Assembly (NCBI GenBank): GCA_964399485.1
Contig: CAYNQS010000006.1
Span: 27,656-91,655 of the forward strand
Origin: an uncultured Candidatus Bathyarchaeia archaeon
Lineage (GTDB): Archaea; Thermoproteota; Bathyarchaeia; Bathyarchaeales; Bathyarchaeaceae
Reading direction: 5' to 3'
Length of the DNA stretch: 64,000 bases
The notes under the pieces were generated by a model, which saw only the letters and a program-made list of their open reading frames with translations, was not told where the DNA came from and made no database searches. Of the stretch, positions 45,980 to 63,968 are shown piece by piece (within the stretch, counting starts at the first letter, position 1; each line of letters starts with the position of its first letter). The position numbers were made by a program, and so were the translations under genes.

Positions 45980-47524
45980 CTAGCTAATAGGAAATTTTTG
46001 CCTTTTTTTAAAGACTAAAAATCCGATAACCAGCATCAAGGCGACTATACCCAGCGCTGCTAAAAGGGGATAGAGAATAGAAGCTGTCTCTTTTGCGATA
46101 GACCATATTCTCAAATCAGGATCGCATAAACCGGACATGCCCATGCAGCCAACAGTCACTATTTCAACGGTGCCATCTTCATCCACATCACCGGTAGCGA
46201 CGTTCCAGGCGACAACGCCATCGCCGATTGTCCAATCTTTGTTTTGTTTCAATGTTAAAGTCTCGCCGTTCCAGTTCCAGACCCTAAGCTGAGCCGCATT
46301 TGGAGTAGCCTCAGTGTTGTTGAAGCTTCCGTAAACTGAGGTTAACCCGCTGGTCACGATGTCTACATGCTCATCGTCGTCAACATCATCTATTGCTATG
46401 GCTTTGATTTCCGTAATGTCTTCCGTAATCCACTCGTGGCTTTTCTCCAAAATCAAGGTGTGCCCATTCCAATTCCAGATTCTGAGTTGTGCATTAATTT
46501 TTTCGCCGTCATACGTCCATCCGCCTGTGACTATCTCTGGGGTGTCATCGTCGTCAATGTCGCCTACTTTCAAATTGTTAACCATAGTGTTTCCCATAGG
46601 GCTTCCACTAATTGTCACTCCACAAACACCCTCAACCATGCGCCACTCCTCATTCGCTTCCAAGATCAGCTCTGTTCCATTCCAATGCCAGATACGCAGT
46701 TGACCGCTACTATTCGTCAGGTCGTTATCGTAGCCTCCTGTGATGATTTCAGTTTCGCCATCATTATCCAAATCGTAGGCGTTCACTGAATACGCATATG
46801 CTTCATTCATGGTGCACCATTCTACGCTCTTCTTTAAATCGAGCCTATTGCCATCCCACTGCCATATGCATAGTTGCGCAGAAGATTTGAGTTCGCCATG
46901 TGCTATGCCAGCTGTGAGTATTTCTGGTGCACCGTCTTGGTCCACATCGTTGATGAATATTGAACTAAACGATACATCTTCACATTCGTAGCTGCCTTTC
47001 AAGACTAAGACTTCGCCGTCGTAGCTCCATACTCTAAGCGAGATGTAAATACCAGTACTGTTGGTAACGTGTCCTGCAGTGACTATTTCGTTTGATTCGT
47101 CGCCATCCAAGTCAGCAACATAAATTGAGTGAATTGAGCCTATCCAATTGTGGCTTTTTTCACACGTAATTTTTTCTCCATTCCAGTTCCAGATTCTAAG
47201 CGGAGCCTCCACGCTTATTCTTGTATCGTTTTCCACGTAATACATGATACCGCCAGTAACCATTTCTATAACTCCATCACTGTCAACGTCGCCTACGAAA
47301 AAGTTGTGTGTATTAAAATTGCAGGTGCCGCCCACGCCATAGGTTTCCCAATGTTGTTCCCACTCCAGAACTAGCCCACCAGGCTCGGCTCTCACGTTAC
47401 AATTTAGGGAAAAAACGAAAACAAGAAGCAGTAAGGTGAATACAACGTAATTGCGGGGACGATACATCATATGGTTTTTTGCTTCAAAGAGACTTATTAG
47501 ATTACCGCGCAAAAACGGGTACAA
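45980..47524 (-). CDS. FG-GAP/VCBS-type seven-repeat beta-propeller surface protein with C-terminal TM anchor
   Basis: 514 aa. Seven DxDxDG-like Ca-binding motifs (DVDSDGVIEMVTGG, DLDGDESNEIVTAG, DVDQDGAPEILTAG, ...), each followed by LR[IV]W(N/S/H)W(N/D)G. C-terminal hydrophobic helix. Confidence 0.75.
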   Translation of the reverse strand: MYPFLRGNLISLFEAKNHMMYRPRNYVVFTLLLLVFVFSLNCNVRAEPGGLVLEWEQHWETYGVGGTCNFNTHNFFVGDVDSDGVIEMVTGGIMYYVENDTRISVEAPLRIWNWNGEKITCEKSHNWIGSIHSIYVADLDGDESNEIVTAGHVTNSTGIYISLRVWSYDGEVLVLKGSYECEDVSFSSIFINDVDQDGAPEILTAGIAHGELKSSAQLCIWQWDGNRLDLKKSVEWCTMNEAYAYSVNAYDLDNDGETEIITGGYDNDLTNSSGQLRIWHWNGTELILEANEEWRMVEGVCGVTISGSPMGNTMVNNLKVGDIDDDDTPEIVTGGWTYDGEKINAQLRIWNWNGHTLILEKSHEWITEDITEIKAIAIDDVDDDEHVDIVTSGLTSVYGSFNNTEATPNAAQLRVWNWNGETLTLKQNKDWTIGDGVVAWNVATGDVDEDGTVEIVTVGCMGMSGLCDPDLRIWSIAKETASILYPLLAALGIVALMLVIGFLVFKKRQKFPIS

Positions 47525-48226: not shown

Positions 48227-48256
48227 TTTTTTAAGGTTAAATTTTAACCAAAAAAA
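48227..48256. repeat. PAL element copy 1 (A/T-flanked variant)
   Basis: TTTTTTAAGGTTAAATTTTAACCAAAAAAA. The core GGTTAAATTTTAACC (48235-48249) is a perfect dyad around a central T. Confidence 0.6.
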
Positions 48257-48386
48257 TGAGTGCGTGTGGAAGTGGACTGGATGAAAGTGTTGAGAACTGC
48301 TACACTCAGGAATGGCGTGTCCTGAATTTTGTGGGGTGTCCTGCTACGCAGTATCAAGTCTGAGGTCAGGAGTGGATACTTGGGCT

Positions 48387-48419
48387 GGTTGGGTTAAATT
48401 TTAGCCCCCAAACCCAAAC
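48387..48419. repeat. PAL element copy 2
   Basis: GGTTGGGTTAAATTTTAGCCCCCAAACCCAAAC. Lies 84 nt downstream of the stop of the 48503-49666 ORF. Confidence 0.85.
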
Positions 48420-48502
48420 TTTCCTTGTGTGCACAATTGCCACGTTGGTTTCATAAAGCGTCGTAGCAGAACTAGCCAAGAGTCCAACTTTTCAATTGGG
48501 GA

Positions 48503-49666
48503 TTAAGATTCTGACCTTTCTCGCTTAATTATTAACTCTCCCTTTAAATATTGTTGGTTATACATTTTCTTGATCCTTAGAATATTCTTGGCCCTCTCTT
48601 CAGTTTCTTTCTCATAGATTTCAATTTCCCCATCAAAAAGACCTAATATGGCTTGTACTTGATCCGGAGAATGCATAAGCGGATTAATCAGAGCAAGAAT
48701 GGTGAATCCTTTTGATTTCAACTCAGAAACAAGTCTTCTTACCCATTTTCTAGTTATTATAGAGCCATGCTGAAGTAAAACGTCCGAAATGATATCTATA
48801 CAAATACGCTTAGCTACACTAGACGTTGATTCCAGCCTTCGAAGGGATTTGGTCAACGCAATATCAATATTTGATAGATTATTAACTCCTTCTAGATTGA
48901 ATACATTGGGTAAGCTCGTATTAGATTTATTTGCACATGGATTGGAAAGAAAAAGATAAAAATTTCCAGGATGTTCTTCGGCTAAAGACCTCCCATTTTC
49001 TGAGTCTAGAGAAAGGTAAAACGTCACTTCGCCTACATTAATTCCTGCTCTCAAAAAATTCTTAATTAGAATTTCCCGTTCATCATTGGAAGGTGAAGTT
49101 ATTATAACGGCGTATCTTTCAGGTAAGCCTCCGAACAAAAAATTGTCTAAATCTTTGTATCCAGTTGAAATACGTTTTGGAGAAATAAATTCATTTTCGT
49201 ATCGAGCTAGGTTTACTTTAATTTGGTTTTTTTCAGAAGGTTCTTCATTTTCAGTAGGTGGGATAAAGGCTGATCCGAAAATGTTAGCTTTTTTAGAAGA
49301 AATTTTACCTACAAGCTTACTCTTTAACTGTTCTATCTCATTCTCAAAAATTTCCCTGTCTCCAGAAGTGGATTCTCTTCCTAAACTATCAATAAGATAA
49401 TCGAAATGAACAGTAATCAATCTATTAGAATACGATTGTGAATTTTCCAAAGGATTAAATGAAATCTTAAGATTAATATCATAATCTTTAAACTCGGTTG
49501 AAGAGTCGTTCTGAAGGCTCATCCGTTTTTTAAATATAAGGAGTCTAGGTTTAATCGAGTCTTTTTGAGCATACTTAAGATTTAAAAAAAAATCCCTCGA
49601 AATATTATATGCTCTTGTTACATGCATGCATGCAGAGTCAATTATAAAGGAGTCAGATATTTTCAC
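48503..49666 (-). CDS. KaiC/RecA-fold ATPase-like protein with degenerate Walker A and unknown N-terminal domain
   Basis: 387 aa. RISTGYKDLDNFLFGGLPERYAVIITSPSNDERE aligns with the KaiC-type TG(I)xxLDxxLGGGxxxGxxxLIxGxxGxGKT, but GxxGxGKT is replaced by SPSNDERE. Visibly AT-rich. Confidence 0.55.
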   Translation of the reverse strand: MKISDSFIIDSACMHVTRAYNISRDFFLNLKYAQKDSIKPRLLIFKKRMSLQNDSSTEFKDYDINLKISFNPLENSQSYSNRLITVHFDYLIDSLGRESTSGDREIFENEIEQLKSKLVGKISSKKANIFGSAFIPPTENEEPSEKNQIKVNLARYENEFISPKRISTGYKDLDNFLFGGLPERYAVIITSPSNDEREILIKNFLRAGINVGEVTFYLSLDSENGRSLAEEHPGNFYLFLSNPCANKSNTSLPNVFNLEGVNNLSNIDIALTKSLRRLESTSSVAKRICIDIISDVLLQHGSIITRKWVRRLVSELKSKGFTILALINPLMHSPDQVQAILGLFDGEIEIYEKETEERAKNILRIKKMYNQQYLKGELIIKRERSES

Positions 49667-49735
49667 TGGGAATCCAACATCCTAAATTTTTAGGAACAAT
49701 AGAATATAAAACTTGTTAGAATTAGATGATTCTTT

Positions 49736-49861
49736 GTGTGCGAGTGCGCGTTTTTTTCTTTGTGGGTGAGAGAGCGGGCGAGCAAGCGGGTGGTCGGTAA
49801 AGCACACACGTACGCGTACGTACACGGATACACGTATACACGCATCCGTGTGAACACGCAT
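49736..49861 (+). repeat. PAL-associated upstream module (copy 1) with alternating purine-pyrimidine tracts
   Basis: Shares the ordered blocks GAGAGAGC, GGT..AAA.GCAC, CACA.TACG..GTACG and ACG...GGGTTTGGG with 62627-62716. Perfect R/Y alternation at 49802-49826 (25 nt) and 49828-49845 (18 nt). Confidence 0.7.
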
Positions 49862-49890
49862 GGGTTTGGGGGTTAAATTTTAGCCCCAAA
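49862..49890. repeat. PAL element copy 3
   Basis: GGGTTTGGGGGTTAAATTTTAGCCCCAAA, between the divergent starts at 49666 (-) and 50037 (+). Confidence 0.9.
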
Positions 49891-50036: not shown

Positions 50037-50237
50037 ATGTCTATGTCTGGAATTCAATATAAAATGGAGCAAAAGCTTATTCGAAAATTTATGCAAGCAG
50101 GAGCCACTTCTAAGGAGAAAGCTGTAACATTGGAAGAGGCTAGACTTGATATGGAAGAGTATTGTTGGTTAGACTATTTTGCTGGAACTTTTCTTGGCAG
50201 CATAAAGAAGACTAGAGACCATCGATATTACCTCTAG
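50037..50237 (+). CDS. Small hypothetical protein
   Basis: 66-aa ORF preceded by a strong SD-like AAGGAGGGGGAG. No family recognised. Confidence 0.4.
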   Translation: MSMSGIQYKMEQKLIRKFMQAGATSKEKAVTLEEARLDMEEYCWLDYFAGTFLGSIKKTRDHRYYL

Positions 50238-50637: not shown

Positions 50638-50668
50638 GGCGGGGTTAAATTTTAACCCCAACCCAACC
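50638..50668. repeat. PAL element copy 4
   Basis: GGCGGGGTTAAATTTTAACCCCAACCCAACC. The core 50641-50659 is a perfect 9+1+9 dyad. Flanked by direct repeats GAAGAGTGAAAAGTG (50602-50616) and GAAGAGTGAAAGTG (50685-50698). Confidence 0.9.
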
Positions 50669-50742
50669 ACTGATAGTTGACGCTGAAGAGTGAAAGTGGA
50701 GAATGGCGTCAGCGGCTTACCAACGAAGAGAGGTAAGAAGAC

Positions 50743-51021: not shown

Positions 51022-51096
51022 TTTCTTTGCCTCACTATGCGCGCACGCAACTATCCATATTTGGTCTTTTCTTAATAATGTTTTATAACGGTTATC

Positions 51097-51121
51097 TTCG
51101 TCGTCGTTCGTCGTCGTTTCG
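51097..51121. repeat. Short tandem repeat (TTCGTCGTCGT x2)
   Basis: TTCGTCGTCGTTCGTCGTCGTTTCG, 9 nt to the left of PAL copy 5. Confidence 0.6.
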
Positions 51122-51127
51122 TTTTTT

Positions 51128-51156
51128 CGTGGGGTTAAATTTTAACCTCAAGCCAA
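51128..51156. repeat. PAL element copy 5
   Basis: CGTGGGGTTAAATTTTAACCTCAAGCCAA, between the start of 50743-51021 (-) and the stop of 51243-51539 (-). Confidence 0.85.
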
Positions 51157-51242: not shown

Positions 51243-51539
51243 CTAGGTAGTTTCTAGGGCAGAAAATCCGGTAAGCAGAATTTTGTTTGAGCAATTGTTG
51301 CATCGAATCAATAGACTCTCTAATATATTGTTTCTGACTTTTGGCTCTAAAATAGAGTAAACATCTTCTGTTTCATCGTTAGGCGAAATCTTTGCCCCAC
51401 AGCAAGGACATAAAAAATCACCCTTCCCTTCTAGATCTATTAAACTAATTTTATGCACCAATACCTGCTTCACTTTTCGATCCCCTAGATATGCACCGCT
51501 AATGCCTTCGATAATTAACAAAAAAAGGTTTTTTGTCAA
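51243..51539 (-). CDS. Small Zn-ribbon protein
   Basis: 98 aa. CPCCG...CNNCS Cys pairs. Confidence 0.45.
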   Translation of the reverse strand: MTKNLFLLIIEGISGAYLGDRKVKQVLVHKISLIDLEGKGDFLCPCCGAKISPNDETEDVYSILEPKVRNNILESLLIRCNNCSNKILLTGFSALETT

Positions 51540-57137: not shown

Positions 57138-57356
57138 GGTCTGGTTTTCTGTTTTCTCGTGGTCTGCGTAGTAGCTGAGTCCCGCCGTTACTCCGGTGGA
57201 TACCGCGAACCACAGAATCATGGCTGTAACGTTTCCCTGAGTGACGATGTATGATAGGGCAATGGAGGCGCCGTGGACAACCGCGAGAATGGCAGAGAGT
57301 TTTGGTTTAAATTCTAATCCCATGACATCACTTCCAGTCACGGTTTGTTTTCCCAC
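57135..57356 (-). CDS. Small two-TM membrane protein (holin-like topology)
   Basis: 73 aa with two hydrophobic helices. Start overlaps the 3' end of the portal-like gene by 19 nt. Confidence 0.4.
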   Translation of the reverse strand: MGKQTVTGSDVMGLEFKPKLSAILAVVHGASIALSYIVTQGNVTAMILWFAVSTGVTAGLSYYADHEKTENQT

Positions 57357-58540
57357 AACTCGAAACCGGCTTTCATCAGGTTTTTCCGCACCTCTTCCGG
57401 TCTCACATATGGGGTTTCGGATGTGGCGCTTATCTCGGCTAGTCTGATTAGGTCTTCTAGTTTGACTTCAGGTTTTTCTGTGCCCCAGTTTAGTCTGCAG
57501 TTTGCCTTCGCTGGGTTGAGGCTTGCCTGCCGTATTAGGGGATTGAAGATTTCTCGTTCGCAGGTTCTTTTTATGAATCGTTGTAGTGCCATTACTTTTC
57601 TTTCCGCGATTTCCAGGGCTGCTCTGGCTGATGCTTCTGTGAAGCCTGGGGTGGTGAACAGTTTTGGCAGTGGGGTTTGTCCGCCCAGGTAGACTTGGTT
57701 GAGGATGTGGTCGATGTAGGCTTCGTAGCGGGCTTTGGGGTCTACGGTGACGGTTTTGATGTCTGCTTCTGGTTTGTTATACACGAATCTTGCGCCTGCT
57801 TTGGGTTTGCTTTTTATGAGTTTCTGGTATTCGGCGAGTTTTTCGTCGCTGGCGCCTGCGAAAATCCACAGTTCGTCTGGTCCAGCGTATTTTTCGAAGA
57901 TTTCGGGCATGATTTTTTCTATGCGGGCTTTCATTTCGAGAAAGCTGATTCTTGTTTCTCCGTTGAAGCTGAGTTCGGTGAGTAGTACTTGAAGGACTCC
58001 TGTTCCGTATGCTGAAAAGTTAACTGGGTTCCAGCGGAAGTGGACGATTTTTTCGGGTTTGAAGGCTGTTTTCGCGTCTCCGTAGCTGTAGTTGTAGCCT
58101 GTGACCTGACCGTACTGGTTTCGTTTTATTGCTGTTGGGTTGTCGAAGCCTGTGAGGGGCAGTATCTTCAGGTTCTGCAGGTGTTCAGGTTCTGTTTTCA
58201 GCCAGAAGCTGTTGCCTGATGCCACGATTTCTCTGGCTGCGATCTGCAGTAGCTCGTCTAGGTTGACTGTTTCGTTGAAGCTGTCTATGATCTGTTTTGC
58301 TTCTTCGGCGCGTGCGTATTCTTCGTTGATTGTGGTGTAGAATCCAGCGCCTACGGCTTGGTCTGCTAGAAAGTCGACGAAGGCTTTGCAGCTGGGGTCT
58401 CTGGTGTAGGCGGTTATTATGTCGTTGAAGGTGACTGTTCGGGTTTCTCCGTAGATTTGTCTCCATGCGGGCAGCAGGACGCCGTTGGTTTGTTGGAGTT
58501 TTCCGTAGAATTCTTTGAGTTTGTTTACGACTACGCTCAA
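57338..58540 (-). CDS. Head-tailed-virus portal-like protein (HK97/Phage_portal-like)
   Basis: 400 aa. IAAREIVASGNSFWL, EKIVHFRWNP..SAYGTGVL and LNQVYLGGQTPLPKLF resemble conserved portal blocks. Judged from recalled motifs only. Confidence 0.5.
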   Translation of the reverse strand: MSVVVNKLKEFYGKLQQTNGVLLPAWRQIYGETRTVTFNDIITAYTRDPSCKAFVDFLADQAVGAGFYTTINEEYARAEEAKQIIDSFNETVNLDELLQIAAREIVASGNSFWLKTEPEHLQNLKILPLTGFDNPTAIKRNQYGQVTGYNYSYGDAKTAFKPEKIVHFRWNPVNFSAYGTGVLQVLLTELSFNGETRISFLEMKARIEKIMPEIFEKYAGPDELWIFAGASDEKLAEYQKLIKSKPKAGARFVYNKPEADIKTVTVDPKARYEAYIDHILNQVYLGGQTPLPKLFTTPGFTEASARAALEIAERKVMALQRFIKRTCEREIFNPLIRQASLNPAKANCRLNWGTEKPEVKLEDLIRLAEISATSETPYVRPEEVRKNLMKAGFELWENKP

Positions 58541-59156: not shown

Positions 59157-60038
59157 TTATGGGCGCTTTTTGTGCCAATCTTCGCATACTGTGCCTGAGC
59201 AGTAATCTTTGCGTTCCAGCTCGATTGTTGAGTGTTCGATGTGATGTTTCAGGAGTTTTTCTTTGATTGTCTGTTTTGTTGGTTCAGGACTTTTGAGTGT
59301 CTCATCATCCAGCACCACATGTGCCGTGAATATGTCGGTTTCTCCCTCCAGTGACCAGATGTGTATGTCGTGGACGTCAATTACCCCCTTGATTGAGGTC
59401 AGATCTTTTTTGACGGCTTCGAGGTTGATGTGCTCTGGGACGCCTTGGAGGAGGATGTTGATTGCTTCTCTGAGGTTTTTGGTTACATTGTAGAGGATGA
59501 ACGCTGTTAAACCGATGGTCATCAGTGGGTCGAGGAGATAAACTTTCCAGAAGTAGATGATTACGCCTCCAACCAGAATGCCCCCCCAGCCCAGCACGTC
59601 CTCTAGGAGGTGCCATGAGAGCACTTTCTCGTTTAGGCTCTCACCTTTTTTCAGCAGAAAGAAGCCCAAGCCGTTGAATAGGATGCCGATGACGGCTATG
59701 CCCACCATTCCAAACGCATTTACAGTTTCTGGATTGAAGAGTCTGGGTATGGCTTGGAAGATGATTACGATTGAGCCTCCGATTAGGATAGAGGCTGAGA
59801 AGAGTGCAGAAAAGAGGGAAAGCCTCTGGTAACCGAATGTTCGGCTGGTGTCTGGAGATTTGCGTGCTCCCCGTTCGAAGAGCCATGAGACCAGTAAGGC
59901 GACGCTGTCGCCGAAATCATGCAATGCATCAGAGAGGATTGCTAAACTGTTGGTCCAGAAGCCGCCGACAAGCTCTATGACTGTGAAGGCGACATTCAAG
60001 AACGCGGCGAAACGCACCCTTTTTTCTCGCTCTGGCAT
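59157..60038 (-). CDS. Cation diffusion facilitator (CzcD/ZitB-type) metal efflux transporter
   Basis: 293 aa. Six TM helices, SDALHDFGD (TM2 HD/DD site), HLLEDVLGW (TM5) and a C-terminal cytoplasmic domain. Confidence 0.9.
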   Translation of the reverse strand: MPEREKRVRFAAFLNVAFTVIELVGGFWTNSLAILSDALHDFGDSVALLVSWLFERGARKSPDTSRTFGYQRLSLFSALFSASILIGGSIVIIFQAIPRLFNPETVNAFGMVGIAVIGILFNGLGFFLLKKGESLNEKVLSWHLLEDVLGWGGILVGGVIIYFWKVYLLDPLMTIGLTAFILYNVTKNLREAINILLQGVPEHINLEAVKKDLTSIKGVIDVHDIHIWSLEGETDIFTAHVVLDDETLKSPEPTKQTIKEKLLKHHIEHSTIELERKDYCSGTVCEDWHKKRP

Positions 60039-60114
60039 GGTTTAAGGTAAGTTCTCGACTTGATAAAAACCTATCCAAAAACAGAGAAATGGGGAAATAC
60101 GTTTAGAACTAAAT

Positions 60115-60138
60115 GGGTTTGGGGCTAAATTTTGATTC
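60115..60138. repeat. PAL element copy 6 (right arm degenerate)
   Basis: GGGTTTGGGGCTAAATTTTGATTC. Overlaps the last codons and stop of the MFS gene. Lies 77 nt upstream of the CDF start. Confidence 0.8.
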
Positions 60139-61324
60139 TGTTTCTCAGGAAGAGTATAAGGGATGAGAAGAACAGTGCTGATAGTAACGGCAGTGTTTGC
60201 GACGGTAAGTATTGGATTATGAATCCTCCTGCGATTGGTGTGATGATTTGAGCTATGCTCTGCAGTGAGTTGTTGACGCCCAGTACGGTTGCGGTTTCCT
60301 TTTGTGTGACGCTGTTTGTCAGTTTGCTGGTTAAAATGGGTCTGCTGACTCCTGTGCCGTAGGCGAGGAAGATTAGGGGGATGAAAACGAACATGTAATC
60401 TGTGGAAAGTGCAAGAGTCACCATTGAAATTACCATGGCTACTATCCCCGTTCTCAGCATGCTGCCTTCACCCAAGGCTCGGAGGATGCGGGCAATCAAG
60501 AATGTTTGAATAGTGACTCGCAGTATGCCGATCCATGCCATGTAGAAGCCGACTTGGTCAGCGCCAACGTGGAATTGTGCTTCTGCCAGTAAACTGAAGT
60601 TGGAAATGAACAGGAAGAATCCGGCGTTGAAGATGAAGAACATGATTAAGCTGTTTCTGACGTTGTGGGTTTTCACGAAGCGTTTAGCGTCGTTGACGGG
60701 GATTACTTCGTTGAAGCGAAGAGATAGTTTTTCGGGTTTTTCTGTGATGGTTTCGGGGAGGAAGAGAAGAACTAGGACGATTGAGACTAGGGTTACGGCT
60801 GCGGCGAAGAACATCGGAACTGAGTAGTCGATTCTGGAGAGCACTCCGCCGATGAAGGGACCGAATATCATTCCGGCGCCGAATACGCCGCTGGAGTAGC
60901 CGTAGACTCTGGTTCGGTGGCGGGGTTCGGTGATGTCGCTGATGTATGCTTGGCTGACGGTCATGTTGCTTCCCAGCAATCCGTCGATTAACCGTGCCAC
61001 AACTAACAGGATTGGGGTGGTGGCGAAGCCGAGGAGCAGAAAGCCTGCGAATGTGCTGAGCTGGCTTAGGATGAGGAGGGGTTTTCTTCCGAAGCGGTCG
61101 CTCAGTTTGCCTGTTATTGGGCTGGCGAATAGTTGGCAGAAGCTGAACACGCTGACGATGAGGCCTATTTGTATGGGGGCTAATCCAAGCGATAAGCCTA
61201 GAAACGGTATTAGCGGCATTACCATAATGAAGCCCAGCACTTCCGTGAAGATTATCAGAAATATCACGTAGAGGCGCTTGTCAAATTTGAAGTCGTCTGC
61301 TTCGTGTGCTTCGTTGGTTTTCAA
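60125..61324 (-). CDS. MFS transporter (drug/H+ antiporter, TetA-like 12-TM)
   Basis: 399 aa. GKLSDRFGRKPLL (MFS motif A) and 12 hydrophobic segments. Confidence 0.9.
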   Translation of the reverse strand: MKTNEAHEADDFKFDKRLYVIFLIIFTEVLGFIMVMPLIPFLGLSLGLAPIQIGLIVSVFSFCQLFASPITGKLSDRFGRKPLLILSQLSTFAGFLLLGFATTPILLVVARLIDGLLGSNMTVSQAYISDITEPRHRTRVYGYSSGVFGAGMIFGPFIGGVLSRIDYSVPMFFAAAVTLVSIVLVLLFLPETITEKPEKLSLRFNEVIPVNDAKRFVKTHNVRNSLIMFFIFNAGFFLFISNFSLLAEAQFHVGADQVGFYMAWIGILRVTIQTFLIARILRALGEGSMLRTGIVAMVISMVTLALSTDYMFVFIPLIFLAYGTGVSRPILTSKLTNSVTQKETATVLGVNNSLQSIAQIITPIAGGFIIQYLPSQTLPLLSALFFSSLILFLRNRIKI

Positions 61325-61405: not shown

Positions 61406-61419
61406 TTAACTAGTTAACC
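61406..61419. promoter_or_regulatory. Perfect palindrome TTAACTAGTTAA(CC) upstream of the MFS gene (candidate operator)
   Basis: TTAACTAGTTAACC at 61406-61419 and GGTTAAC at 61352-61358. Both share the GGTTAA/TTAACC half-site with the PAL core. Confidence 0.3.
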
Positions 61420-61598
61420 AACAAACTGGAGAATCAATGAAGAATCTCTTTTGTTGGCTAAATTTCTGAGAAATGAACGTAAAGAGTGGATTCCTCGCAT
61501 CGTAATTAAAGAATAAAAGTCATAAGTCATCATTCTCCCATGACCAGATGTTTTATAACCAATTAGTTTTAAGATGTTTTTGAGGTGAGTAAAGGCAA

Positions 61599-62579: not shown

Positions 62580-62626
62580 TGCTCTAATTTTGAACTATGT
62601 GTTTTCTATAATTTGTGTTTTTTCTA

Positions 62627-62716
62627 CATGTGTATTGGGGAGAGAGCAGGTGGGAGCGCGGTGTAAACGCACGGGCACACATACGTACGTGTACGGGCGT
62701 ATGGACACGAGTACGT
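62627..62716 (+). repeat. PAL-associated upstream module (copy 2) with alternating purine-pyrimidine tract
   Basis: Homologous to 49761-49861 (blocks GAGAGAGC, GGTGTAAACGCAC, CACACATACGTACGTGTACGG, ACG..GGGTTTGGG). Perfect R/Y alternation at 62675-62695 (21 nt). Confidence 0.7.
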
Positions 62717-62738
62717 GGGTTTGGGTTTAATTTTAATC
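62717..62738. repeat. PAL element copy 7 (degenerate right arm)
   Basis: GGGTTTGGGTTTAATTTTAATC, between the convergent 3' ends of the HNH gene and the Shedu-like gene. Confidence 0.75.
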
Positions 62739-62788
62739 TCTCTGGCATCGCTCAATACTAAGAATTAAAGCCGTAAATCTCAAGCAAC

Positions 62789-63892
62789 TTATTTTTGCTT
62801 TGAAATAGCATCCAAATATTCTTGATACCGTGATTTGCATTGATTTACTACAGAAAAATAAGACTTGAATTCAATTGAGGGAATCAAGTTGATTGCCTTC
62901 TTTAGATGGGGAGTAATGTTCTTTGCTATTAGGAATCCCTGTTTTTCATCATATTCCGCAAATTCATCAACAAGAACCAAGTAATCCATTAGTTGAGTTA
63001 TGTGTTCCTGTTTAACTTGCATTGAAGGCCTTTTAATCTCAACTACGACCAGTCTTTTTTCGAAATCAGCACAAATAAAGTCAGGACGTCTTTTCCTATA
63101 TTTTTTCCTGTATTCTTTTCCAAGAAAATTTGAAAGTGTTTTGTTAGAACGGAGAAGCCAATACTTATCGTCAAGAATCCAAAGCGCACCTGCAAGTTGG
63201 TTATGTACAGAGTTTTTCCCTTTAATCTCATAGGCATTTTCATTTTGAATGGATGCATCAAAAATTGTTAACTTCCGTAATCTACTGCCAATAATGCTTG
63301 CAACAGAAGTAATTTCCGGCAGAGTGTATTGCTGCATTAGTTGGTGTAGTTTTTTCATTCCTTCAGGCGATTTTTCTTTTCCTAGCTCATTAATCAGTTC
63401 TTTCAAAGTGTTAGCCATTATGTCTTGTTTACCCAATAGAGACCTAAAAGCTGTCTCTACAAAATCGCTAAGAACATCAAAATCTTCAATTTCGACTTCG
63501 CCACGATAAACTTGGTCAAAAGCTTTCAAAATGCTGATTGCCGCTTTAGGGTATTGTTCAACAATCTTCTTTACTTGTGGGTCAATTGCTTCTTCTTTTC
63601 TCAATTGTTTTTCTAAAGCTTTTAGAAGAGGTGGTAATTTTTCCCATTTCAGTTTATTTGCTAAGTAATCTAACACTGGTTTGACTTTTGCTAGTTCCTC
63701 AGGGGTTTTTATTCTAACGGATTGATAATAAAATGGGCTTTGACGGGGTCCAGTAGGGCCTCTAGTCAACCTGTATAATTGTAAAGCTCCTCTGGGATTA
63801 AAAATATCCTTATAAGCTCTCATGTAAAATTTCTGTTTGATGATTGTTTGTCTATCGATTATAGTTTTTTGAGTTGCACCTTGATTTGACAT
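62789..63892 (-). CDS. Shedu-like protein: variable N-terminal region plus C-terminal PD-(D/E)xK nuclease (DUF4263-type)
   Basis: 367 aa. C-terminal ...HNQLAGALWILDDKYWLL...RRPDFICADFEKRLVVVEIKRPSMQV...QLMDY fits the D...(E/V)xK restriction-endonuclease-fold core and the DUF4263 pattern as I recall it. AT-rich. Confidence 0.5.
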   Translation of the reverse strand: MSNQGATQKTIIDRQTIIKQKFYMRAYKDIFNPRGALQLYRLTRGPTGPRQSPFYYQSVRIKTPEELAKVKPVLDYLANKLKWEKLPPLLKALEKQLRKEEAIDPQVKKIVEQYPKAAISILKAFDQVYRGEVEIEDFDVLSDFVETAFRSLLGKQDIMANTLKELINELGKEKSPEGMKKLHQLMQQYTLPEITSVASIIGSRLRKLTIFDASIQNENAYEIKGKNSVHNQLAGALWILDDKYWLLRSNKTLSNFLGKEYRKKYRKRRPDFICADFEKRLVVVEIKRPSMQVKQEHITQLMDYLVLVDEFAEYDEKQGFLIAKNITPHLKKAINLIPSIEFKSYFSVVNQCKSRYQEYLDAISKQK

Positions 63893-63944
63893 AAATAATA
63901 GAATTGTCCGATATACTATATTTGATTTCGTATGAAATTAATTT

Positions 63945-63968
63945 GGGTTTGGGGTTAAAATTTGACCC
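63945..63968. repeat. PAL element copy 8
   Basis: GGGTTTGGGGTTAAAATTTGACCC, 53 nt upstream of the Shedu-like gene start. Confidence 0.85.

Follow-up and report, generated by a model that had tools for sequence, protein, structure and literature searches.

What is a stretch of DNA with long alternating purine-pyrimidine (R/Y) tracts doing beside a short palindrome in an archaeal genome, and does it belong to the palindrome or to the neighbouring genes? In sediments, Bathyarchaeia rank with the most abundant of the uncultured archaea, and little is known of their gain and loss of genes. The present study concerns 64,000 nucleotides (nt) from an uncultured Candidatus Bathyarchaeia archaeon (GenBank assembly GCA_964399485.1, contig CAYNQS010000006.1, positions 27,656 to 91,655), hereafter called the window, in which two such stretches, here named modules, each adjoin a copy of a 19-bp palindrome, here named PAL. 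An original prediction, made from the letters of the window, had proposed that the two modules are homologous, that module and palindrome together form a boundary element, and that this element might be a structured non-coding RNA, a recombination hot spot or a remnant leader. We show that PAL centres mark where single-gene segments meet and where they have been inserted, deleted or exchanged among related genomes, and that the modules belong to a family of more than 50 distinct copies found in Bathyarchaeia genomes and marine-sediment metagenomes. The larger element, the R/Y tract and the hot spot at PAL were thereby borne out, and the non-coding RNA and the leader were not. The module is apparently undescribed, as our literature search found no published description of PAL or of the modules and nothing relevant on Bathyarchaeia cassettes or palindromes.

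The module family and its ordered blocks

PAL reads GGGGTTAAA-W-TTTAACCCC and is usually lengthened by (GGGTTT)n or (AAACCC)n. When the two modules of the window were searched against each other using nhmmer, the hits were reciprocal but weak (E = 0.017 and 0.025 in 0.8 Mb). Used singly as a query, each window module detected PAL-adjacent relatives; seven loci of Bathyarchaeia metagenome-assembled genomes (MAGs) gave E-values down to 6e-10 in this way, and a profile of nine sequences scored all of these copies at 4e-11 to 8e-21. These intermediates beside PAL secure the homology of the two window modules. Metagenome contigs were scanned with a pattern that specified solely a 9-nt R/Y seed and PAL, and 62 loci were returned; the upstream blocks, absent from the search pattern, were present in the same order in about 50 of them. 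A hidden Markov model (HMM) of the 5' half, made from the window and MAG copies alone, gave 24 matches in 326 kb, of which 18 lay directly upstream of an anchored R/Y tract (within 40 nt), and four further matches (in L112, L114, L120 and L133, the L-numbers being labels of compared loci or contigs) were also upstream, past this cut-off. This recovery of the upstream blocks and of the 5' half beside the tract indicates that the similarity is positional and not merely compositional. The original prediction had itself named low-complexity resemblance, or a lack of further copies together with a lack of transcription, as the outcome that would speak against it; ordered copies in many loci and conserved positions were found instead.

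Both window copies belong to subfamily A1, in which the blocks follow one another towards PAL in a constant order. The module often starts with (GC)n or GTGCG, and continues with a T-run or a TTTATATA box (TATATA-type), GGGTGAGAGAGC with short GC-rich repeats, TAAAG, an alternating tract centred on ACACGTACGTACACG, a variable stretch, GAACACGCAT, and (GGGTTT)n or (GT)n, which leads into PAL. The other subfamilies (four exist in all) keep this architecture, with (GAGCG)n, (GTGACTGA)n or (GACCGAGAG)n as the first block. The anchor motifs GGGTGAGAGAGC, GGCGGTAAAGCACAC, ACACGTACGTACACG and GAACACGCAT are retained in diverged copies across several genomes. Modules are 100-160 nt long and the conserved unit of module and PAL measures about 120-170 nt, larger than the palindrome as had been supposed. 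The shorter GTGCG or (GC)n tracts noticed elsewhere in the window also exist, at 48258-48270 and 51036-51049. In two loci (L171:8814-8935 and L119:7-128) one PAL carries inverted modules on both sides (A2 and A1), giving an imperfect palindrome of about 300 nt.

The perfect alternating R/Y runs that had been reported, of 25 nt (49802-49826), 18 nt (49828-49845) and 21 nt (62675-62695), are present and go beyond the longest runs of five mononucleotide shuffles of the window (14-19 nt). The total of runs of at least 12 nt is not raised (12 observed, 13-17 in the shuffles), so that only the long runs stand out, and the remaining long runs of the window fall in coding DNA. The alternating tract is a family-wide feature, the longest run measuring 14-29 nt in all 20 aligned A1 copies. 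The ratio of transitions to transversions in the same alignment falls from 2.4 in the R/Y tract to 1.4 for the 5' block and to 0.25 for the arm; with substitutions in the tract biased in this way, the purine-pyrimidine pattern is better kept than the bases themselves. The window runs and all 20 aligned copies fit the usual description of a Z-DNA-prone tract, an alternating run of at least about 12-14 bp rich in CG/CA steps, and by published dinucleotide energies the predicted B-Z cost of the tract would be roughly that of (CA)12. Under negative supercoiling the tract is plausibly Z-prone.

PAL centres as joints of single-gene segments

With up to three mismatches and both strands counted, PAL has 14 matches in the window against 0.22 expected, all of them between 48234 and 63968, in the last 16 kb, a part that contains stretches of low GC content (35-39%). 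An oriented extension, TGGGTTTGGGG, goes with five of the window copies. An exact-pattern scan of species-representative genomes found PAL in 108 stretches, mostly Bathyarchaeia MAGs, and PAL is a lineage-wide marker of Bathyarchaeia. Viral contigs gave only 3 matches, which argues that it is not a virus-borne site. Of the 151 copies in the PAL-selected genome loci, 129 fall outside called open reading frames (ORFs), and PAL shows no preference among convergent, divergent and tandem gene pairs.

PAL-PAL intervals (n = 125) have a median length of 1149 nt, contain a single ORF in 65 cases and mostly have a GC content of 0.32-0.44; the PAL-bounded segments are of lower GC content than the core genome. 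Some intervals of 76-240 nt hold no gene (L033, L070, L074, L078, L080, L088, L116, L120 and L133), as is also seen at 48234-48408 of the window, where no ORF lies between the PAL pair.

Of the 107 internal homology breakpoints of the archaeal loci, 22 are no more than 30 nt away from a PAL centre; 1.8 would be expected, and 2000 randomisations gave 9 at most. The predicted recombination hot spot is therefore real for PAL itself, and the segments of the window agree with it. Two loci, L127 and L146, are syntenic with the window over an MFS gene (60125-61324) and a CDF gene (59157-60038). Between these genes the window has one PAL (60114-60138), where L127 has two PAL-bounded segments and L146 three, and this single PAL is a hybrid: its left half is that of the first PAL in the L127 and L146 arrays, its right half that of the last. 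L114 and L117 have in common a 0.87-kb segment, module included, of 94.7% identity between unrelated flanks, and the homology starts and ends at PAL centres. The KaiC-like segment of the window (48391-49885, module included) recurs in three other genomic contexts, its relatives lying beside PKD-domain genes (L176-L178) or beside GDE/ARMT1 genes (L179), with 90-91% protein identity; the homology stops 3-9 nt from the PAL centres (at 48391 on the left and at 49885 on the right, compared with L176-L179). The region of PAL copy 2 and positions 49861-49886 form an inverted pair (I1). Homology that breaks at the site, the same unit in different contexts, and both empty and filled sites, as expected of a cassette junction, are thus all seen at PAL. 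Within the KaiC-like gene, identity to L177 is 95.7% at codon positions 1+2 and 94.8% at position 3, which suggests relaxed or diversifying selection on this cargo gene.

The module lies inside the PAL-bounded segment, against one PAL half, and moves with the segment. Its orientation is constant relative to PAL. The gene on the module side is co-oriented with it in 23 cases and divergent in 22. Of the genes on the far side of PAL, 14 are co-oriented and 26 convergent. The polarity of the module is therefore set by PAL and independent of the genes, which argues against a role as promoter, untranslated region (UTR) or terminator.

The interior of the module evolves fast. Between L114 and L117 the module shows 73.5% identity and 8 gap columns, against 96-99% identity for the genes and spacers of the segment, and the drop starts directly after GGGTGAGAGAGC. 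A three-way alignment showed the L144 module to be a mosaic of the L114 and L117 copies, and a 30-nt indel, flanked by direct repeats of GTCCGACC, sets L158 apart from L159. The interior thus changes by repeat slippage and by exchange with other copies, and these changes are confined between GGGTGAGAGAGC and PAL.

Variant PAL halves occur in 17 of 134 PALs and double variants in none (0.5 expected), numbers too few to place the crossover. The central A/T base showed no clear bias towards any module subfamily, with a classifier that mis-sorted subfamilies. The PAL core GGTTAAATTTTAACC is identical to a strong Escherichia coli Fis binding-site sequence used in PMC2018646, the only paper in which our literature search found the PAL sequence. 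The identity is very probably a coincidence; it shows the core to have the make-up that would be typical of a bendable, A/T-centred protein-binding palindrome. The core also occurs once per locus in Acidobacteriaceae MAGs (L002, L011, L018, L019, L025, L050, L095, L097, L103 and L105), in each case together with another palindrome, GGGTTAAT-N-ATTTAACCC, and next to a conserved gene, and looks like an unrelated operator pair there, not the archaeal element.

The module as a proposed accessory arm, and its alternatives

We propose that the module is a DNA-level accessory arm of a recombination site formed by PAL, the two making up a composite intergenic element which occurs across Bathyarchaeia and has diversified by slippage and ectopic exchange. 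This is the best explanation we can offer, and we put its chances at about even; the same evenly balanced judgement applies to the part of it which holds that the module acts on the DNA level and not as a structured RNA or a gene-expression signal. PAL would be cleaved or undergo strand exchange at its centre, through a site-specific enzyme whose gene lies elsewhere or once a hairpin or cruciform has formed. The module would be the complex accessory arm of the segment-borne site, like phage attP arms or the iterons beside a rolling-circle origin hairpin, and would contribute short binding motifs in repeated form, an AT-rich opening region and tracts prone to Z-DNA. Broken PALs could moreover be repaired from other copies through the dispersed homology that the module would provide, and such ectopic repair would explain both the spread of the module into unrelated segments and its scrambling. 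A bolder version, which we consider unlikely, is that Bathyarchaeia own a cassette-exchange system unrelated to integrons, with PAL as crossover or cleavage site, the module as complex arm and the enzyme encoded elsewhere in the genome; the arm, with its iteron-like repeats, unwinding patch and Z-DNA-prone DNA, would then license excision and integration or the transient replication of excised circles.

PAL marks the exact joints of single-gene segments lineage-wide, and the recognisable arm adjoining it adds a concrete sequence signature, which can be used for mapping flexible genome regions in MAGs and for seeking the responsible enzyme. The module tracts further allow the involvement of non-B-DNA (Z-DNA, cruciforms) in archaeal recombination to be tested.

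Several observations weigh against an accessory arm. Of about 150 PALs in the PAL-selected genome loci, only some 9-12 have a module. Module 1 is 94.1% identical to the L176-L178 copies and so evolves at the rate of third codon positions in the KaiC-like gene (window against L177), with no sign of purifying selection. In L179 it is reduced to about 25 nt (the CA arm and a GAACGCGCAT-like motif) while the segment persists, and in L180 a KaiC-like gene of 78% identity stands without PAL or module and with the same promoter; the module is therefore not required for the segment or its gene. An all-against-all BLASTP of the locus ORFs found no protein family recurring beside PAL, and no recombinase or nuclease was found in the PAL-bounded segments (window ORFs and sampled cargo ORFs), the cargo being ordinary. 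Pfam scans of the ORFs of the window's island showed no integrase domain, and the ORFs of 1-45 kb, judged by eye alone, look like housekeeping genes. Plain homologous recombination between dispersed repeats of 19-45 bp could account for the exchange at PAL. Housekeeping genes lie in some PAL-PAL intervals (TBP in L015, eS30 in L036), so that PAL may be a general intergenic repeat of the repetitive extragenic palindromic (REP) kind and not a dedicated cassette site. Finally, in subfamily A2 a canonical TTTATATA box abuts the module, as would suit a transcription unit.

A serious alternative, albeit one that we regard as somewhat unlikely, is that the module has no role and is neutral simple-sequence DNA generated beside a fragile palindrome by slippage and error-prone repair, its shared block order reflecting common descent and hitch-hiking with PAL, an account of the order to which we give the same rather low weight. 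The absence of the module from about 90% of PALs, its truncation in L179, its substitution rate, synonymous-like or faster, and its slippage indels and variable repeat numbers would all fit. Neutrality does not readily account for the anchor motifs that persist in diverged copies of several genomes, for four subfamilies which have the same architecture and polarity with different repeat units, or for R/Y alternation preserved via transitions; and a module present in many unrelated segments must spread, which needs some mechanism. We see next to no chance for the other sequence-composition reading, in which the window modules are alike through low complexity alone or encode a small protein on the minus strand. 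Its supports are the weak pairwise nhmmer E-values and minus-strand ORFs of 54-59 aa that overlap both copies, and it is refuted by the order-preserving homologues in more than 50 loci, the anchor motifs and the independent detection of the 5' half beside the R/Y-tract anchor. The ORFs (59 and 54 aa) were rejected as genes: their shared residues are only those which the DNA similarity imposes, their starts and stops are not conserved, they are open through base composition, and the indels are not multiples of three. Annotators should regard such composition-driven ORFs over modules ('GLKFNPKPK...') as spurious.

Readings in terms of gene expression fared less well than the accessory arm. That the module is an independent small non-coding RNA gene, starting from the T-rich or TATA sequence at its 5' edge and ending at the PAL hairpin and TTTT, strikes us as improbable. 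Its best argument is the TTTATATA box, which would serve as a promoter element: this box or TTATATA directly abuts GGGTGAG in many copies, mostly of A2 and some of A1. An orientation independent of the neighbouring genes is also what a separate unit would show, and the + strand of module copy 1 folds better than its shuffles (z = -3.28, 0 of 200 shuffles as good). These hairpins are not conserved, however, and RNAalifold on the alignments labelled A2 (n = 9) and A3 (n = 20) retained just three GC pairs of the PAL stem with 0 compensatory changes. The window has no Rfam match at the gathering threshold; in E-value mode the best hit, mir-297, reached 27.8 bits against a gathering score of 90 and is a CA-repeat artefact. 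A tRNA/tmRNA search of the window found nothing, and the R/Y tracts as single strands fold no better than shuffles. Copy 7 of PAL cannot form a hairpin at all, and a structured RNA ending in a PAL hairpin is not supported. Window copy 1 has a T7 run in place of the TATA box, and in archaea a T-run is a terminator-like signal on that strand. True promoters of these loci have an A-rich transcription factor B recognition element (BRE), as in AACAAG-TTTTATAT upstream of the KaiC-like gene, which is missing from the module TATA boxes; the distance of these boxes to the R/Y tract varies from 25 to 49 nt, and the module interior is hypervariable. Still less probable, and in our view very unlikely, is a cis-regulatory part of the adjacent gene, whether promoter or UTR, terminator, or insulator between transcription units. 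The T-runs at the 5' edge do resemble archaeal terminators, and the median distance of PALs is somewhat smaller to stop codons, at 73-117 nt, than it is to start codons, at 166-174 nt. Against this stand the gene orientations on both sides of the element and the position of module copy 1, which the transcript of the KaiC-like gene does not include and which lies upstream of the BRE/TATA belonging to that gene; that promoter is kept where the module is truncated (L179) or absent (L180). The same position and the independence from neighbouring genes speak against the remnant leader.

Known systems and neighbouring features

The closest analogues of PAL and its module are REP/BIME mosaics (BIME, bacterial interspersed mosaic element), integron cassettes and dif modules. 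Like the REP/BIME elements of enterobacteria, PAL is a short intergenic palindrome, lineage-specific, in many copies and both orientations, with few conserved accessory motifs in mosaic combinations and no fixed relation to gene orientation; the 151 PALs and several recurring arm types correspond to the multi-copy palindrome and accessory motifs of that class. REPs carry a GTAG/CGTC tag (PMC3733652), which is missing from PAL, whose first letters are GGGG or (GGGTTT)n. Among the locus ORFs, in which no protein family recurred next to PAL, a RAYT-type transposase was not seen, the comparison not extending genome-wide. The accessory parts are here simple-sequence arrays of 100-160 nt and not short fixed motifs, and PAL centres coincide with gene-content breakpoints.

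Integron cassettes resemble PAL segments in forming arrays whose units, about 1 kb long and of lower GC content, mostly hold one gene and are separated by palindromic sites, in the recurrence of the same unit in different arrays, and in empty and filled sites that differ exactly at the palindrome. Archaeal integrons use canonical attC sites (PMC9668308), unlike PAL, which is a perfect palindrome of 19 bp and not an imperfect R''-L''...L'-R' site of 57-141 nt with extrahelical bases. The GTTAAAT of PAL fits the GTTRRRY crossover box, but its partner overlaps and there are no spaced R/L boxes. PAL segments occur in both orientations with their own promoters (TATA boxes), PAL also stands singly between ordinary genes, and no IntI or attI was found in the window (island ORFs scanned with Pfam, the rest by eye). 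The dif modules of Acinetobacter plasmids (PMC6449649, PMC13141974) are likewise discrete gene modules bounded by short recombination sites, borrowed in their case from a housekeeping-type system, and shuffled between replicons without an adjacent recombinase gene. A pdif site measures 28 bp and has a 6-bp spacer, with XerC and XerD arms that differ from each other, whereas the arms of PAL are identical around a single central A/T; in a Xer-type view PAL could be read as 6-bp arms with a 7-bp spacer or as 9-bp arms with one central base. The dif modules are without simple-sequence arms.

The attP arms and the iteron-hairpin origins of HUH/Rep systems (geminivirus, circovirus, IS200/IS605 ends) offer a works-like comparison only. 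They too have a one-sided region of 100-200 nt with repeated motifs, an AT-rich patch and a fixed polarity beside the core site or hairpin where DNA is cut, but no cognate integrase or Rep was found encoded in PAL segments (window and sampled cargo ORFs), and the copy number of module motifs varies even between near-identical segments. Miniature inverted-repeat transposable elements (MITEs) are similarly short, non-coding, multi-copy and intergenic. The module has no terminal inverted repeats, with PAL at one end and a T-run left edge lacking an inverted partner; no target-site duplications were seen; and copies within one MAG (L004, L015, L039, L053) and in the window are highly diverged and of unequal length. 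The defining features of integron attC sites, of tagged REPs with RAYT and of MITEs are accordingly missing here.

The features of the window are collected in Table 1.

Table 1. Coordinates of modules, PAL copies and neighbouring features in the window
Feature	Position	Strand	Sequence or remark
PAL copy 1	48234..48250	.	AGGTTAAATTTTAACCA; with copy 2 encloses a 157-nt gene-less interval
PAL copy 2	48390..48408	.	centre 48399, then (AAACCC)2 arm; left junction of KaiC-like segment
KaiC-like PAL-bounded segment	48399..49878	-	1479 nt, GC 0.36; one gene and module copy 1
KaiC/RAD55-like ATPase gene	48503-49666	minus	sole gene of its PAL-bounded segment
Module copy 1, subfamily A1	49738..49868	+	nhmmer/profile homology; carried along with KaiC-like segment in L176-L178
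Module copy 1 blocks, 5' part			GTGCGAGTGCGCG 49738-49750; T7 run 49751-49757; GGGTGAGAGAGC 49764-49775; GC-rich repeats to 49795
Module copy 1 blocks, middle			GGTAAAG 49796-49802; alternating R/Y tract 49802-49845
Module copy 1 blocks, PAL end			GAACACGCAT 49852-49861; GGGTTTG arm 49862-49868
PAL copy 3	49869..49887	.	GGGGTTAAATTTTAGCCCC, centre 49878; right junction of KaiC-like segment
PAL copy 4	50641..50659	.	perfect consensus, then AACCCAACC
'Type C' PAL-side motif	50679..50710	+	GACGCTGAAGAGTGAAAGTGGAGAATGGCGTC; related sequence at 48281-48325, L102, L136
'Type B' PAL arm	51096..51130	+	CGTCGT/CGTT repeats abutting PAL copy 5; like arms in L015, L027, L029, L030, L085
PAL copy 5	51131..51149	.	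GGGGTTAAATTTTAACCTC
Hybrid or 'empty' PAL	60114..60138	.	overlaps MFS gene stop codon; L127, L146 filled here
Module copy 2, A1-like, more diverged	62616..62722	+	nhmmer/profile homology
Module copy 2 blocks, 5' part			T6 run 62618-62623; GGGGAGAGAGC 62637-62647; GTAAAC 62663-62668
Module copy 2 blocks, PAL end			R/Y tract 62675-62695; GGACACGAGTACGT 62703-62716; GGGTTTGGG arm 62717-62725
PAL copy 7, degenerate	62723..62739	.	GGGTTTAATTTTAATCT; no hairpin fold
PAL copy 8	63944..63968	.	GGGTTTGGGG arm; right junction of 1229-nt segment with gene 62789-63892

PAL also has arms other than the module. At 51096-51130, for example, the arm consists of CGTCCGT repeats with (GGTT)n, and at 50660-50710 of (AACC)n and then GACGCTGAAGAGTGAAAGTGG; T-runs beside C-runs also occur. 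The GAAAGTG...GAATGGCGT similarity that had been noticed within the window is real, and recurs beside PAL-(AACC)n in L102 and L136. The type C motif has self-complementary ends and is found, in loci unrelated to one another, about 10-20 nt past PAL-(AACC)n; it may represent either a small hairpin element or a further type of arm. A composite unit of module, PAL and type B arm was considered and is not claimed, the enrichment being modest ((AACC)n at 9 of 48 module-bearing PALs and at 21 of 260 PAL sides).

Near the PALs of the window, two small proteins are encoded at 50037-50237 (66 aa) and 51243-51539 (98 aa, a CxxC...CxxC zinc ribbon); their homologues (L015:3961-4164 and L039:2834-3064) lie in PAL-bounded segments of another MAG, beside modules. 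An FG-GAP repeat protein gene is present in the window (45980-47524) and in a Bathyarchaeota MAG (L004:3365-4864). A PAL region follows it in both, the segments beyond differ, and in L004 a module and PAL also stand directly upstream of the gene, so that its surroundings look like a hot spot common to both. A 5.9-kb insertion (L146:5701-11593, likewise in L147) splits the homologue of the window's gene for a 400-aa protein (57338-58540), at a point corresponding to about 58194-58204 of the window. The one integrase that we found is encoded here, a tyrosine recombinase (Pfam Phage_integrase, E = 4.9e-14) whose N terminus carries a zinc ribbon. As its junction is not at PAL, the insertion is a separate integrated element. 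Lastly, the sequence TTAACTAGTTAACCAACAAAC at 61410-61425 is similar to a PAL half that has decayed, with (AAC)n as its arm, and its site coincides with the end of synteny to L141 and L127 (61401-61426 of the window).

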